A stretch of 64,000 bases of DNA from a virus. A program made the position numbers and the translations under genes. Position 1 is the stretch's first letter. Every line of letters starts with the position of its first letter. The stretch is taken from positions 1-64,000 of IMG/VR virus record IMGVR_UViG_3300025065_000001. One strand, written 5' to 3'. The notes under the pieces were generated by a model. The model ran no database searches. It was not told the DNA's origin and saw nothing but the letters and a program-made list of their open reading frames with translations. Of this stretch, positions 8,184-52,356 are shown piece by piece.

Positions 8184-8228
8184 CGTTTCTCGAATTGAGG
8201 GGGGAATGTTCCCCCCGTCCCGCTGGGC

Positions 8229-8945
8229 TTACTTGTTAAGTTGCTTTTCAAGATCCTTTTGAATCTCAAGCGATAGGGCAAGCATTGCTTTGCTAACCTT
8301 GGCGCGGTGTGCCTTAGGTAAACCGGCCGCGTCTAGCGCTTCAAGTTGGTTATTGATTAGCGCTTGAGTGTGATCCTCAAGCTTAGAAACAAGAGCCATT
8401 ACCGCGCTAGATACATTATCATCAGCAGCACGCTTTGCCGCGCCGCCTTCTTTATCCTTGCCCTTTACAGGCGTGCTTTTCGCGTCTTTGCTTGGCTTTT
8501 CTTCTTTCGCTTCTTTAGGCAAGTATTCACCTAAAAAGTTAAGCCATTCAACGCGCCCTTGAGGAGCACCGTTTTCGCCGTAAATATCCGCGTTTAATAC
8601 CTTGTCACCGATTTGCGCAAAGGTGCCATTTAACTCGATCGTTTTGATTGAGTCGAAAAACTTGGTTAGATATTGACGGTTATCATTTACGAATTTCACG
8701 TATGTTTTCCAGTAACCTTTTGCTTGGTTGTATAGGCGTGAGCTGTCGCGGTTGGCTTTTGTACGTTGGTTAGCTGGCACGCCGTACAAGTCACAACAAA
8801 GCGCGATGTTTGCACCTTGTTCCATGTTGTGTGCTACGGCATAGCACGCAATAGCCATTTTAACGGCTGGCACACGTAGATCATTCTTATCAGCAGTAAC
8901 AAGAGCAGAAGCAAAAACAGAAGCGTTAAAAGTGGTAGTAGTCAT
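8229..8945 (-). CDS. hypothetical early protein (first gene of leftward operon)
   Basis: AAGGATTGACGATTATG start; Ala/Lys-rich ORF. Confidence 0.75.
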   Translation of the reverse strand: MTTTTFNASVFASALVTADKNDLRVPAVKMAIACYAVAHNMEQGANIALCCDLYGVPANQRTKANRDSSRLYNQAKGYWKTYVKFVNDNRQYLTKFFDSIKTIELNGTFAQIGDKVLNADIYGENGAPQGRVEWLNFLGEYLPKEAKEEKPSKDAKSTPVKGKDKEGGAAKRAADDNVSSAVMALVSKLEDHTQALINNQLEALDAAGLPKAHRAKVSKAMLALSLEIQKDLEKQLNK

Positions 8946-9262
8946 AATCGTCAATCCTTAAAAGTTAATTTGTTGGTGGGGGAATGTTCCCCCCTCGAAG
9001 TAAGTAATGCGCTACTTGCCTCGAGTTGCATTCACTATATAAGGGGGGGTGGATTTTATGCAAGAAAACGGGGTGATATAGTGGGGTGGCCCTCTCACTC
9101 CACCTGAAAAATTTTTGGAATTTTGGAAGGTTATAGATACTACCCTCGACCCTAAACCCGAGACCCAAGACCCAAGAACCTCAACCCCTTCACCCAAGAA
9201 ACTAGAAACTTTACCCAAGAACCTAGACCCAAAAGTAAACCTTAGGAACAAAAAGCGAGTAG

Positions 9263-9460
9263 TAAAAGAAAACCCCGAGGGTTGGGCCACTCGGGGTTTG
9301 AGACGTTCAACGTAATCAGAGGTCGTTGTTCGTAGGATAAGCTTGAAACTAGGTAGGCGGACGAGCACTAAAATTAGAACAGGCTTTATCGTCAATTTCC
9401 AAATTGTAGGGAGCGCTTGGGCTCCTGCGGTTGAAGCATTTAAGTTGTTTGCTGTCAACG
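9263..9460 (-). ncRNA. candidate non-coding RNA carrying a perfect target box (possible sRNA sponge)
   Basis: Promoter-like TTGACC..TATACT (9495-9469, short 15-bp spacer); box ATTTGGAAATTGACGATAA with no ATG; terminator hairpin 9270-9299 followed by a U-tract. Confidence 0.45.
9264..9299 (-). terminator. intrinsic terminator
   Basis: AAACCCCGAG...CTCGGGGTTT stem followed by TCTTTT on minus strand. Confidence 0.7.
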
Positions 9461-9720
9461 CCAACTAAAGTATAAAAATCTCTACAGTTGGTCAAGTGAT
9501 GAAACCGGTGGCAAGCTTGATATTCTGTTACATAAGTGTTAAATGCGGACGGTTTTTAGTGTCGTATTTCTGAAATAAAAGACACAATAAAATTGTGTTT
9601 TTGTAGCTGGAAAAGTGAGTGACTTGAAAGCACTTACACACATTGTCAATGTGTGTAAATTGACGTAAAAAAGTCGAAAAAATTTTTAAAATTTTTTCGA
9701 CTAAAGTTATGGCTGTTTGT

Positions 9721-12228
9721 TTATTGAACGTTTAATTGAATATCAAGTCCATAATACTGAATAACTAATCGGTTTTTTGAATCGCGTCCTACGACTTGGA
9801 GAAACTGATAAAGTGTACTTAGCTCTTTTGTCCGGCGATAGAATTCCCCTTCATCAACTACCGCGCCGTTTTTAAATTCCCTTACTGATGCGGCATAGAG
9901 CGTATATAAGTCTCTTCCTGATATTGAGGGTAGTGACTTTAGTTCTTCAATCAGTTCATCTTTTGGCAGGGATTTAAGCACCGCTATCATAGAATCATCA
10001 GATAATTCAATATACCCAGAGGCTTCAAAGAAGTAGCGAACGTTGTTGTTCATCTGCCCGAGCTGGCGCACGAGCTCATGGTGTGAGTCGGGTAGTGTGT
10101 AGTCGCGATTGTTTACCAGTCTCGGGTAAGCGCGTAAGGCCCACGAGATAATTTTGTCTTTTTCTTCGGCCACGATTTTATTACCGATATCCAGTTCTCG
10201 CTTTTCTGGCGGAATAGGTCTTTCGGTATTTAGTATCAACCAACGGCGGGTAAACCCTTCTGAGAAATCTTTAGTCTTCGGTAGATGGTTTGATGCAAAC
10301 CAGTGTGTGGCCATCGGCTGCAGGGTGTTATGTTGATTGATGTTTCGCTTAAGCGTTACTTCGTTCCCGTCAACAATATCCTTGAAGCGCTGGCTATTGA
10401 TAGCGTCGTTTTCCGATAGTTCGCCACACAGGTTTAGCAGTTTGTTTGAGAGTGCGGCCAGCGCGTCGTTATCTCCCCACTTGTTAGGTGGTAGGGAGAC
10501 GCGCTTTTGAGGTGGTACCAGACCGCGAATGATATTGAGTATCTGGCTTTTACCTGATTTTGGCGTGCCGTGAAGTAGGATGGCCCGTTGGAAAAGCGTG
10601 CCGGTATTGAAGAACGTTGCGGCCATCGCTTCTTGCAATGCCAGAATGTTATCGCTCTCTTCTTCGGTGGTCCAAATCTCCGTGATGAAGTTATAGAGCT
10701 TTTCTGGCGGGTAAACTTGGTGTGGGTTGAACGTGAATGGCAACGTATATGTTAACCCCATATCGGGGTCGTGCGGTAGCAACTGAAGTTGTGAGTTCAC
10801 GAACCCGTTATTGAAATTCACACCGACAGCATTGACGCGTCGAAGGGGCAGGGCCAGTTTGTTTTTGATAGCCGTAATAATCGTATTGGTGTTACGCGTA
10901 CCCTTGTCTGTGAAGTTCGACGGAAAGTAGGTGTTGATGATATGGCTTATCTCATGATCTTCTACCGGTTCCCAATGCGTGCCTACCCAGCGGCATAATC
11001 TCTGGGCGTCGATGGCCGAATCATAGCGATGCTCAGTTTGACTCGAGAGAAACTGTGTGACGATAGTAACGATGGCCGGAAGGTCTATCACGCCCCGCGC
11101 TTGCTTCCGTAGGTTTGCTATCTGACTATCCATCTTCGTCATGTTTAGCTTCATCCCAGACTGGCGCGAGATATATCGCTTGAGTTGGTCTACTTCAAGT
11201 TTGGTTACCGTGAATGAGCGTGCGATTTCTTCCATGGCCGACTGGCATGCACTCAACATTTGGGTTTCGTTACCAATAGCCTCTGACATTTTATCGTAAA
11301 CGTACTTTTGAAGGCCTTGATAGGTGTATTGCGCGTCCTTTGAGGTGAAGGGAATAGCGTATCTGTCCCTTAGATTAGAGCCAATATTGACGTCCCAGTG
11401 CGGAGGAAGGCGAAGGTTGTAGTACATCCGCACTTGGTGGATGAGTGAGTAGAAGGTCTGGAAATAGGCGTCTTTTTGATGATTTGGTGGTATTTCGACA
11501 AAATTTTGCGAAAAACTGTTATAAAGCGCGTCAATTTCTTGCAAAACGGGCAAAAGATACGTGTTTTGGTCGCAATTTAGTAAAAAATCGTAGCAAAAAT
11601 GCGTCAGATAAGAACGCATAGTTACGTCTAATTGACCTAAAGTGTGTAATTTTGTCCTTGCTTCATGCTGGTATTTCTCTTTCTGAAGCTCAACATCCGG
11701 CAAAATTTCCTGTAAGACGTCCATGATGTGGTGGGGTTCGAATACCGGTAGGTTATCTATGACGTCTTTGGTAGGTACCTGAGTCGGTGAGCTCAGTACC
11801 ACAAACGCGTCTTCCGCCAAGAATGAAAGTAACCGTCCCTCGAGGCCAGAGCCAAGAACCGCGAATGATTTTAATGATTCACTACAAGGCGAAGGTGCCG
11901 GTGCTTTAAAAATCATGTAGTGACTATTTGATTCAGAGACGAGCCAAAAGCTTGAAGGAAGCTTATGCGAAAGTGAAAGCTTTAAATCGGATTGTTTATG
12001 ATCGAGCCTTACCGCAACAAGACAATACTCACTCTCGTCTTTGAGGGCCTGACCTAAAGCCACGCCACAAAGCTTATCCGCATGTGTCGCTTGCCAATTC
12101 TTTTGGTGTAACTCCTGGGTGGCTTGCTGGATTTTGTCACTTGGGATAGCGGGGAGCTTTGAAGTTTTAAACAGCGGAATCGTTGGCACACCCACAGCAA
12201 ATAAGGCTTTCGATAATAAACTATACAT
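9721..12228 (-). CDS. P4/D5-family primase-associated SF3 helicase
   Basis: D5_N-like NFNNGFV..PHDPDMGLTYTLPF; Walker A GTPKSGKS; motif C WFASNHLP; GFTRRWLIL. Confidence 0.8.
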   Translation of the reverse strand: MYSLLSKALFAVGVPTIPLFKTSKLPAIPSDKIQQATQELHQKNWQATHADKLCGVALGQALKDESEYCLVAVRLDHKQSDLKLSLSHKLPSSFWLVSESNSHYMIFKAPAPSPCSESLKSFAVLGSGLEGRLLSFLAEDAFVVLSSPTQVPTKDVIDNLPVFEPHHIMDVLQEILPDVELQKEKYQHEARTKLHTLGQLDVTMRSYLTHFCYDFLLNCDQNTYLLPVLQEIDALYNSFSQNFVEIPPNHQKDAYFQTFYSLIHQVRMYYNLRLPPHWDVNIGSNLRDRYAIPFTSKDAQYTYQGLQKYVYDKMSEAIGNETQMLSACQSAMEEIARSFTVTKLEVDQLKRYISRQSGMKLNMTKMDSQIANLRKQARGVIDLPAIVTIVTQFLSSQTEHRYDSAIDAQRLCRWVGTHWEPVEDHEISHIINTYFPSNFTDKGTRNTNTIITAIKNKLALPLRRVNAVGVNFNNGFVNSQLQLLPHDPDMGLTYTLPFTFNPHQVYPPEKLYNFITEIWTTEEESDNILALQEAMAATFFNTGTLFQRAILLHGTPKSGKSQILNIIRGLVPPQKRVSLPPNKWGDNDALAALSNKLLNLCGELSENDAINSQRFKDIVDGNEVTLKRNINQHNTLQPMATHWFASNHLPKTKDFSEGFTRRWLILNTERPIPPEKRELDIGNKIVAEEKDKIISWALRAYPRLVNNRDYTLPDSHHELVRQLGQMNNNVRYFFEASGYIELSDDSMIAVLKSLPKDELIEELKSLPSISGRDLYTLYAASVREFKNGAVVDEGEFYRRTKELSTLYQFLQVVGRDSKNRLVIQYYGLDIQLNVQ

Positions 12229-29699: not shown

Positions 29700-29728
29700 T
29701 TGACAATAAAATTGTGTGTCCGTAATAT
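29700..29728 (+). promoter_or_regulatory. sigma70 promoter of candidate sRNA
   Basis: TTGACA (29700-29705), 17 bp, TAATAT (29723-29728), AT-rich UP-like region upstream. Confidence 0.8.
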
Positions 29729-29734
29729 TGACCT

Positions 29735-29813
29735 CGGTTAGTAGTCCAAGTGGCTCCTAATTATCGTCAATTTCCAAATCAACGCCTCAGCCTTGCTGGG
29801 GTGTTCTGTTTTT
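29735..29813 (+). ncRNA. candidate trans-acting antisense sRNA (~80 nt) complementary to the phage-wide translation-initiation box
   Basis: Promoter upstream; seed TTATCGTCAATTTCCAAAT (29761-29779); terminator stem with G-U pairs valid only on + strand, then CTGTTTTT. Confidence 0.75.
29781..29813 (+). terminator. intrinsic terminator of candidate sRNA
   Basis: AACGCCTCAGC-CTT-GCTGGGGTGTT followed by CTGTTTTT. Confidence 0.7.
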
Positions 29814-45889: not shown

Positions 45890-46093
45890 TCGTGTCGTAC
45901 TCGTGTCATTTCGTGTCCCTTTCGTGTCACCTTTCGGTACTGGTAAAAGAGGTAAGTTGTTGATTTGTACCCTCTTTGTACCTTCTTGTTTGGTGGAGCT
46001 GGCGGGATTTGAACCCGCGTCGATTATTTCCTAAATAGCTGATAAGCTTGGTTTTTTATTCGTGCCATTGGTATCTCGTGCCGCACTCGTGTC
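45890..46093. mobile_element. attP: core equal to tmRNA (ssrA) 3' end, flanked by TCGTG(T/C)C arm-type repeats
   Basis: 45991-46021 reverse complement GACGCGGGTTCAAATCCCGCCAGCTCCACCA; TCGTGYC at 45890, 45901, 45911, 45922 and 46060, 46076, 46087; adjacent to integrase. Confidence 0.85.
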
Positions 46094-47269
46094 ATTTTGG
46101 ATTTTTTTCTCGTAATCCTCGATGAATTTACCGTAGTGTCGAAATAGCATTTCTGGCGAAGAGTGGCCCATCCAATTTGCCAACTGCCACAAGTTAATTC
46201 CCTCACTAATATGTCGAGTCGCGAAAGTGTGACGCATTTGATACGGGTACCGGTATCTTACTTTTGCAGCGGTAAGAATTCGACTCCATTTGTGTTTACG
46301 AAATGAGTCTGGGTTTATCCGGTTCAACTCCCCCTCTGGCAGTTCCATTCCAAACTTTAAGTTTTTAGGGAACACAAAACCGCGACCCAGATAGGAAAGT
46401 TCTCTTTGCCGGTTAAGGGCATTCATCGCGCTTTCATTTAAAGGTATGGCACGTTTACCGGCTTTTGATTTTGGACCCTTGATCTCGTTATGCACAATGG
46501 CCGCTTTTACGACTAAGGTGTTGTGAATGAAATCGACTTCGTTCCACTTAAGCGCCGACCATTCACTAGGCCGCATCCCCGTATTGAAAACCAGCTCAAC
46601 AATATTTAGCTCTTCCGGTCTGCAATGCTCATAGATTGCTTCGACTTCTTGTGGTGTGAACGGGTCGATATCATCGTGGCCACCGTCTAAATCTACCTTG
46701 TTATCTTTTTCTACGTAGTTAGAAAGCTTCACACCATCAATCGGATTGGTTGGTACCAGTCCGTCAGTCACAGCTTCGGCCAGTGCAGTACGTAAAAAGC
46801 TGAACTTGTTTCGCAGTGTTTTAGGTGAGTTCCCAGACTTGAGAACAAAGCTTTTCAAAACTTGCGGCGAGAGCTCGGTCACAGGGATAGGGTGGAGTTC
46901 CTTAACCGAGGTCTTCAGTTTTTCGTAGCCTTTAATAGTAGAAGGTGAGAGCCCCCGTTTCTTGACGCTCTCAATATATTCCTCCAAGTACGCTTCAACA
47001 GTCTTGCCCCACGCTACAGCGCCACCGAATATTTTTAGCTTTGGTGAGCTGGGGAAGTAGTCCGCGTATCGGAAAGTTTCACGCTCAATTTTATTTAATA
47101 TCTCACCGCGTAAGTTACCCGCGTATTTGATATTTGATTTGTTGACTGGAACCTTAAGGAGTTCGCGGCAGCGAACCCCTTTATATTCGAAGTTAATTTG
47201 AATACGGTCTTCTTTGGCCCCAGGCCTAATAGTTACCCCGCGAGGGAGTTGCCCCCATTTCTTATCCAT
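46031..47269 (-). CDS. int: tyrosine integrase with N-terminal arm-binding domain
   Basis: TGMRPSE, K, YQMRHTFAT, MGHSS..HY catalytic residues. Confidence 0.95.
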   Translation of the reverse strand: MDKKWGQLPRGVTIRPGAKEDRIQINFEYKGVRCRELLKVPVNKSNIKYAGNLRGEILNKIERETFRYADYFPSSPKLKIFGGAVAWGKTVEAYLEEYIESVKKRGLSPSTIKGYEKLKTSVKELHPIPVTELSPQVLKSFVLKSGNSPKTLRNKFSFLRTALAEAVTDGLVPTNPIDGVKLSNYVEKDNKVDLDGGHDDIDPFTPQEVEAIYEHCRPEELNIVELVFNTGMRPSEWSALKWNEVDFIHNTLVVKAAIVHNEIKGPKSKAGKRAIPLNESAMNALNRQRELSYLGRGFVFPKNLKFGMELPEGELNRINPDSFRKHKWSRILTAAKVRYRYPYQMRHTFATRHISEGINLWQLANWMGHSSPEMLFRHYGKFIEDYEKKIQNDTSAARDTNGTNKKPSLSAI

Positions 47270-51826: not shown

Positions 51827-52333
51827 TTATTTTGTTTTATTTAGAGTTAATACTCTTTTAGGTTTATCACCTTTATCATCTGATGTTGACTGGCGTGTGC
51901 CGCGTCCCACTTTCTGATTTATGATAATCCCTTGCTTCTTGTTCTTACGTCGAGAGCGTAAGTACATAGAATGTAGTTCAACCATTCTCTTACGAGCATG
52001 GTCTGCTTCGGATTCGGTTACTCTACCGTCAGGCTTTCCCCAGAGGTTAAAGCGCTGGGCACCAGTACGAATACGATTGAGGTATTTTATAGAATTAACG
52101 TGAAAGCCTATCGCATCGTATAGTTCTCTTGAGCTGACTTTCTTAGGAGAAATAACCGCACGAAGTTGCTCATAAATATCCCTACTTAACGGTTTGTTAG
52201 TTAAGATTCGGAATTTATTTTTACGACAATAGGTGACCACCCAAAGCCAGCAATGGATAGGTTTTTCAAATTGTAATTTTTTAGAATTATATTTAAGGCT
52301 TACACCTTCAATTCCAAAAGTGGCGTTATCCAT
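51827..52333 (-). CDS. ProQ/FinO-domain RNA chaperone
   Basis: KPLSRDIYEQL...LYDAIGFHVNSIKYL....GAQRFNLWGKPDGRVTESEADHA matches the FinO-domain pattern (PLxxGI, YL, GxxRxDLxG..G.V). Confidence 0.8.
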   Translation of the reverse strand: MDNATFGIEGVSLKYNSKKLQFEKPIHCWLWVVTYCRKNKFRILTNKPLSRDIYEQLRAVISPKKVSSRELYDAIGFHVNSIKYLNRIRTGAQRFNLWGKPDGRVTESEADHARKRMVELHSMYLRSRRKNKKQGIIINQKVGRGTRQSTSDDKGDKPKRVLTLNKTK

Positions 52334-52356
52334 GCTCAACTCGTCAATTCATATTT

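Follow-up and report, generated by a model that had tools for sequence, protein, structure and literature searches.

A candidate non-coding RNA gene of a marine phage carries a gene-start box without a gene and may act as a decoy for the phage's own small RNA

What is a gene-start signal doing where no gene starts? This question is raised by a locus in an 80,544-bp virus record, of which the first 64 kb are referred to here as the window. A box, GGAAATTGACGAT(G), marks about 45 gene starts of the 80.5-kb phage. With at most two mismatches, the 13-nt box has 36 matches in the window against 1.6 expected, and 47 genome-wide; with at most three mismatches, its 19-mer form has 11 matches against 0.02 expected. 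Nearly every copy is oriented with a gene and ends in the ATG of that gene. In one copy, ATA takes the place of ATG and no gene follows downstream, so that the start codon typical of the family is missing. This orphan box is an exact 13-mer that fits the clade consensus GGA(A/G)ATTGACGAT, and it has TACAATTTGGAAATTGACGAT in common with the gene start at genome position 78636-78656.

Relatives of the phage were found in IMG/VR and in marine metagenomes, with primase identities of 72-97%. Several of them carry a provirus classification, and two contigs of an Alteromonadaceae genome bin match parts of the locus at 100% identity. The source is therefore a temperate marine phage, and its host probably belongs to that family. 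Primase identity to the nearest named phages is only about 29%, and a blastn search with positions 8900-9800 returned zero DNA-level matches among GenBank phages. In the virus record, the early and replication genes run leftward and the structural block runs rightward. The window encodes a tyrosine integrase (46031-47269), a Prim-Pol/D5-type primase-helicase (9721-12228) and, on the minus strand, a ProQ/FinO-domain protein (51827-52339; Pfam PF04352, E = 7.5e-13). The gene for the last of these recurs in every one of the four relatives with a completeness of 90% or more, at 71-99% identity.

The orphan box lies in a minus-strand unit at 9264-9495 that comprises a promoter, a hairpin, the 19-mer and a terminator. 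As the first-pass annotation had read it, the promoter consists of a -35-like hexamer TTGACC (9490-9495) and a -10-like hexamer TATACT (9469-9474, within TATACTTTAGT), separated by 15 nt. The promoter scan accepts spacers of 16-18 nt only, and the unit promoter is missing from its list because a 15-nt spacer falls outside that range. A genome-wide search with a narrow near-consensus promoter pattern gave three forward candidates and a weak one, the pattern being too narrow for conclusions. From the positions of promoter and terminator, a non-coding RNA of about 200 nt with approximate ends at 9264 and 9466 is predicted. Close to its 5' end lies CGTTGA (9455-9460), which is complementary to the box core TTGACG. 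A GGAGC/GCTCC hairpin (9421-9425 and 9410-9414) stands immediately 5' of the box. ACAAT, two further nucleotides and the box follow at 9386-9407, with the 19-mer ATTTGGAAATTGACGATAA at 9386-9404 and the 13-mer at 9388-9400. The element GTCTCAAACCC (9294-9304) leads into the terminator; it has no further copy in the genome and so is not a recurrent motif. The terminator scan placed the intrinsic terminator at 9264-9296, with its hairpin at 9273-9296 and the T-run TTTTCTTTT at 9264-9272. Thus the hairpin, the strong terminator and the length of about 200 nt from promoter to terminator, all proposed earlier, were recovered, and the stretch from the box to the terminator is indeed free of ATG.

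In the predicted fold, the box has an unpaired probability of 0.44-0.60, somewhat above the average of the RNA. RNAalifold retains a single internal helix, formed by the 5' CGTYGA and the box core (9455-9460 with 9390-9395). This helix may represent self-masking that partly hides the box, as far as the folding model goes; the search for covariation in it yielded one-sided changes only, with no statistical support, and shuffle controls were uninformative. The box was also considered as the -35 hexamer of another promoter, which was ruled out by the lack of a suitably spaced -10 hexamer.

The region behind the primase gene was aligned in nine sequences, with L031 added as a fourth lineage. All of them keep TTGACC, exactly 15 variable nucleotides, TATACTTTAGT, CGTYG, ACAAT-NN-GGAAATYGACGA, GTCTCAAACCC and the terminator, whose hairpin after GTCTCAAACCC ends in TTTT(T)CTTT in every lineage. 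The promoter hexamers, the 15-nt spacing and the TTTAGT start are invariant despite primase identities of 72-96%. In the deepest comparison, between the window, the L006 group and L031, only CGTYG, ACAAT-NN-GGAAATYGACGA and GTCTCAAACCC with the terminator are conserved inside the unit, and the box is regarded as the functional core because it is among these few elements. The hairpin 5' of the box is found in every lineage and is built from unrelated sequences; the terminator stems are wholly different between lineages, each forming a perfect hairpin. Compared with L003 and L005, identity is 27-31% in the spacer upstream of the promoter, 96-100% in the box segment and 93-100% in the 3' part with the terminator. 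The flanking spacer is 27-41% identical outside the closest group versus 77-78% inside it. Judged from the sequences, this pattern is the signature of a selected RNA gene and not of a decaying gene start. L003 (8735-8965), L005 (8785-9021) and a contig of run X9 contain an extra insertion of about 35-68 nt that forms another hairpin; it sits between the RNA start and the box-proximal hairpin, and the box and 3' part of these sequences are nearly identical.

The 3' half of the RNA diverged in the L006 and L031 lineages, and its strong conservation among the closer lineages may point to a further function or to a recent exchange of this segment. The RNA could be a trans-acting small RNA with targets of its own, such as host mRNAs, the box being a control site or incidental. 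Such a role would suit a 3' half that is 93-100% identical where the lineage flanks have diverged, and the architecture of own promoter, hairpins and intrinsic terminator is typical of small RNAs. However, outside the box the complementarity of the RNA to the phage genome does not rise above chance, and the 3' half is not conserved in L006 and L031; we consider this explanation improbable. Neither this RNA nor the small RNA described below fits an Rfam family, the C4/P4 CI RNAs included: the search of the window at the gathering threshold gave no family match, and matches at E values up to 5 were at chance level only. A scan of IMG/VR for the promoter pattern returned 22 loci, 9 of them on known contigs and 13 without the box or the terminator motif, and most of these 13 look like chance matches.

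The unit might also have no function as RNA. It could be what remains of a gene start since lost, or a small ORF, or a site that acts at the DNA level. The context is that of a real gene start with ATA in place of ATG, and the 15-nt promoter spacer is suboptimal, as this explanation would have it. Yet promoter, box and terminator have been retained where the neighbouring non-coding DNA is scrambled, and the start codon is missing in all four lineages, in which the corresponding codon is ATA (window, L005 and L003 types), AAC (L006 group) or ATT (L031). No ORF is shared by the four lineages in start, frame, length or sequence. Translation from the TTG within the box, named in the first-pass annotation as an observation that would overturn a non-coding reading, appears unlikely on the same comparison. 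A small ORF starting there was rejected, TTG not being conserved (it is TCG in the L006 group), and L005 has a frameshifting 1-nt deletion directly after the box. Use of ATA or ATT as a rare start codon was likewise rejected, since AAC stands at this position in the L006 group.

Evidence of transcription was sought in assembled contigs of public runs, which are unstranded and from which transcript ends and level cannot be read. In one run, the marine metatranscriptome X15, a stand-alone contig of 166 nt covers 9292-9459 only. One end of it lies 3-7 nt downstream of the predicted RNA start and the other is at the terminator. The genes on either side are on separate contigs (8223-8998, and 9691-12073 with the primase), and no contig of this run bridges 8999-9291, where the repeats described below lie, or the terminators behind the primase gene. 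The contigs fit three separate transcripts and argue, as a hint, against plain DNA carry-over. Runs X17 and X19 left the unit uncovered, and run X9 contains one continuous 5.3-kb contig that is DNA-like in appearance; all three were excluded from the evidence for transcription. The coincidence of the X15 RNA contig with the unit is a further point against a unit without RNA function, an explanation to which we assign only a very small chance. The unit, which is conserved, self-contained and devoid of an ORF common to the lineages, bears out the earlier description of it as non-coding. Very probably, it is a real conserved non-coding RNA gene that carries an orphan gene-start box.

What such an RNA could bind is suggested by a second identical 19-mer at 29761-29779 on the minus strand, which is the exact complement of a plus-strand small-RNA candidate (29735-29813, with a promoter at 29700-29728). 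In the predicted fold, the centre of this small RNA, TTATCGTCAATTTCCAAAT, is unpaired between two hairpins and complements the 19-mer. The small-RNA unit (29700-29813) is kept in the records of five relatives, with an invariant TTGACA -35 hexamer and a nearly invariant body. Pairing in its terminator is preserved by a compensatory change: one group has CCTCAGC/GCTGGGG where the other has CCCTAGC/GCTAGGG. One G-U pair in the terminator is feasible on the plus strand only. All five relatives' records that were searched for the small RNA contain both it and the orphan-box RNA. A scan of IMG/VR for the small-RNA core found the same clade and chance matches only. Past the end of the window, an HTH-like ORF (genome 73086-73110, plus strand) with an apparent GTG start holds a box in its first codons (AAG AAA ATT GAC GAT AAT); 14 nt of it are complementary to the small RNA, and this regulator gene may be a target.

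One position of the small RNA varies between relatives, and the boxes vary with it. The position is A (TCGTCAATTTCC) in this genome and in G001, G002, G003 and G006, and G (TCGTCGATTTCC) in G004 and G005. A pairs with U only, and G pairs with U or C. The four relatives with A have no C-type boxes (ATCGACGA) and 24-30 T-type boxes (ATTGACGA) each; in this genome, none of the 36 matches listed is C-type, and 33 of the 36 have TTGAC. G004 and G005 each have about 11 C-type and 12-16 T-type boxes, and the orphan box is C-type in both. This distribution is as RNA pairing predicts, and it is not predicted by protein or DNA recognition. It is suggestive and falls short of proof because it comes from one lineage split only. 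In G005, all five boxes in the strand block of the small RNA are C-type and the boxes on the opposite strand are mostly T-type; the mixture might mean two pairing strengths for two classes of genes.

The wobble pattern also bears on the idea that the RNA is a decoy for 30S subunits or for a box-binding protein of host or phage, for example one of the ProQ/FinO type. Several features agree with a decoy of this kind: the RNA offers the full context of a gene start, including the stretch shared with 78636-78656; ACAAT is conserved although it takes no part in pairing with the small RNA; and the phage has a gene for a FinO-domain protein. However, a T/C pattern that obeys RNA wobble is not what protein recognition would predict, and there is no known box-binding protein. 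FinO-domain proteins bind terminator hairpins rather than start regions, which also speaks against them as readers of the box. A decoy for ribosomes or proteins therefore seems to us an outside chance, slightly better than that of a trans-acting RNA.

The orphan box had been singled out as the longest perfect match to the small RNA. This is correct by a single base, with 19 nt of perfect complementarity against 18, 18, 17 and 17 at gene starts, and it does not extend across the clade. The perfect match is 16 nt in L005 and only 12 nt in the L006 group, and 13 nt in L031 if a small RNA of the window type is assumed. Duplex energies were computed with the single-stranded core of the small RNA. 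By this measure, the orphan box ranks 3 of 48 here (-25.7 kcal/mol), where many mRNAs lie between -23 and -28 kcal/mol, and 9 of the 14 sites sampled in G005 (-20.5 kcal/mol, 12 contiguous pairs). These ranks point to an ordinary box without a gene and not to a conserved high-affinity trap, within the limits of the energy model. Cofolding of the full RNAs favours the duplex of box and anti-box; the net gain amounts to -22 kcal/mol in this genome and to -18 kcal/mol in G005, and the remaining hairpins stay intact in both cofolds. Pairing of the two RNAs in the cell is plausible.

The surroundings of the unit suggest a different use of such pairing, one that the first-pass annotation had left out of account. 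Directly behind the terminator, on the minus strand, lie iteron-like repeats with a 7-nt period (9140-9240), the unit terminator stopping about 25 nt short of them. Their position is conserved and their sequence is lineage-specific: the repeat units are GGTTCTN/GGGTCTN here, GTTTCTA in L006 and GGTTTCG in L031, and homologous repeat places were found in L001, L003, L005, L006 and L031. Beyond the repeats are a conserved AT-rich block, CCAAAATTCCAAAAATTTTTCAGGTGG (about 9100-9128), and, before the next operon (about 9030-9065), a conserved promoter-like element, TTGCAT...TATATAG, accompanied by a C7 run. Together, and next to the primase-helicase gene, repeats, AT-rich block and promoter-like element probably form a region of iteron type, either an origin or a control region.

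The RNA could accordingly be a regulated target, either an origin-linked RNA (an activator or primer precursor) or the leader or attenuator of the downstream early operon. Pairing of the small RNA at the box would switch its activity or read-through, as with ColE1 RNA I/RNA II or P4 CI RNA/seqA-seqC. The unit stands between the primase-helicase gene and the repeats in every lineage and is transcribed toward them; ACAAT, GTCTCAAACCC and the 3' half are conserved beyond the need of a mere sponge; and the small RNA could open the possible helix between the 5' CGTYGA and the box. However, a strong conserved terminator ends the RNA ahead of the repeats, no X15 contig bridges 8999-9291, and the downstream operon has its own conserved promoter. 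A Prim-Pol enzyme requires no primer made by RNA polymerase, no alternative anti-terminator structure was found, and the repeats are an origin by inference only. We regard a regulated target as unlikely, though less so than the other rivals to a decoy for the small RNA.

Other elements were noted near the unit. The stretch from the primase terminator to the RNA promoter contains a pair of palindromes (9582-9598 and 9636-9656). One is ACACAAT-N3-ATTGTGT, bordered by an A-run and a T-run; the other is ACACACATTG-T-CAATGTGTGT. A further palindrome site is at genome position 72954-72970, and a half copy of ACACAAT-N3-ATTGTGT lies at 29703-29715, inside the spacer of the small-RNA promoter. These palindromes could be bidirectional terminators or operator sites. 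A palindrome of a G-run and a C-run, GGGGGGAACATTCCCCC (window 8955-9000), is located in the leader of the gene starting at 8948. It is conserved in relatives, with the variant GGGGAACTCCCC in L006, and it also occurs in other early intergenic gaps, at eight sites according to the first-pass annotation.

Among these explanations, we prefer a target-mimic decoy. Since the box complements the unpaired centre of the small RNA, the RNA would most likely be a target mimic that base-pairs with the anti-box small RNA of the phage. Four parts would make it up: a 5' hairpin particular to each lineage, a single exposed copy of the box that lacks a start codon, a spacer that varies, and the conserved terminator. 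The ProQ/FinO-domain protein, a possible RNA chaperone for the decoy and small RNA, would perhaps help pairing. The decoy would compete with the roughly 45 box-bearing mRNAs for the small RNA, and would determine the amount of unbound small RNA that remains available at their translation starts. That titration of the small RNA is the main job of this RNA is a tentative conclusion, to which we give a little less than an even chance.

Some observations do not sit well with a decoy. A sponge has to be abundant, and the promoter, given its 15-nt spacer, is predicted to be weak; about 45 phage mRNAs would themselves absorb the small RNA during lytic growth; and pairing with the small RNA does not explain the conservation of ACAAT and GTCTCAAACCC. 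The proposal of a small-RNA decoy, made in the first-pass annotation, thus stands in part. In its favour are the conserved unit, the X15 contig, the pairing potential in two lineages and the shared T/C rule, and what falls away is a conserved super-target, the duplex energy being ordinary. Pairing in the cell, titration, early timing, de-repression and a role in lysis or lysogeny are steps that we infer. A lysis/lysogeny switch formed by the decoy, as first proposed, is doubtful. The same degree of doubt applies to a circuit of three parts, in which a master small RNA on most gene starts, a ProQ/FinO-type chaperone and a threshold-setting decoy would provide post-transcriptional immunity in the lysis/lysogeny decision.

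Parts of this proposal resemble known systems. Prophage anti-sRNAs, AgvB and AsxR, were reportedly described in enterohaemorrhagic E. coli by Tree et al. in 2014. Like the unit, these RNAs (reviewed in PMC7873438) are phage-borne, non-coding and self-contained, mimic an mRNA site, and have been proposed to sequester a small RNA. They trap the Hfq-dependent GcvB and FnrS of the host core genome, whereas the predicted partner here is the phage's own small RNA; the mimic in the unit copies the phage's own gene-start box and has no sequence similarity to AgvB or AsxR. In bacteria, the chbBC spacer (for ChiX) and 3'ETS-leuZ are target-mimic sponges. SroC is another, for GcvB (PMC4474525). As in the unit, SroC, the chbBC spacer and 3'ETS-leuZ present an untranslated seed-complementary site that competes with mRNAs. 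However, sponges of the SroC type are by-products of mRNA or tRNA precursors, whereas the unit is a gene in its own right, equipped with promoter and terminator, and the site in it does not exceed those of the mRNAs in strength.

Two further parallels are more distant. RNA-based phage immunity is known from the P4 CI RNA with seqA/seqC and the P1/P7 c4 RNA with ant (Rfam C4 family). There, as proposed here, transcripts of the phage contain repeated sites to which a small RNA of the same phage base-pairs in trans, holding lytic functions in check. The P4 and P1 RNAs, however, act on one operon, either by termination or by keeping a single gene from being translated, and are not known to come with a separate decoy. 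FinP-traJ-FinO and RocR-RocC are FinO-domain chaperone systems (PMC9977716, for the family). In them a mobile element encodes a FinO-domain protein and a small RNA that covers a ribosome-binding site, as is predicted here, but neither is known to have a dedicated decoy RNA.

The box family itself has a parallel in the start-associated sequences (SAS) of Cluster K mycobacteriophages, which are 13 nt long, asymmetric, gene-oriented and placed over the ribosome-binding region (PMC3203893). Rare SAS copies lie off gene starts, and four phages have a single copy in reverse orientation (PMC3203893). Both families are thus 13-nt gene-start motifs with orphan and reverse copies; they differ in sequence and host, and no RNA partner or decoy has been described for SAS. 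A literature search found no description of a small RNA/decoy system of the present kind. As an RNA sponge, the unit would be of a new form, and the whole circuit would be new for phages.

In sum, this study found a conserved unit that would be a new phage non-coding RNA beside a probable origin even if one of the rival explanations applied, in which case RNA pairing would be tied to replication or early transcription. If the decoy reading is true, one small RNA governs translation across almost the whole gene set of a temperate phage, and the phage adjusts this control with a sponge of its own, a layer of regulation undescribed for any phage. It would also offer a concrete and testable account of what the start-associated sequences do, a question that dates from 2011, and would account for the orphan and reverse SAS copies of mycobacteriophages.
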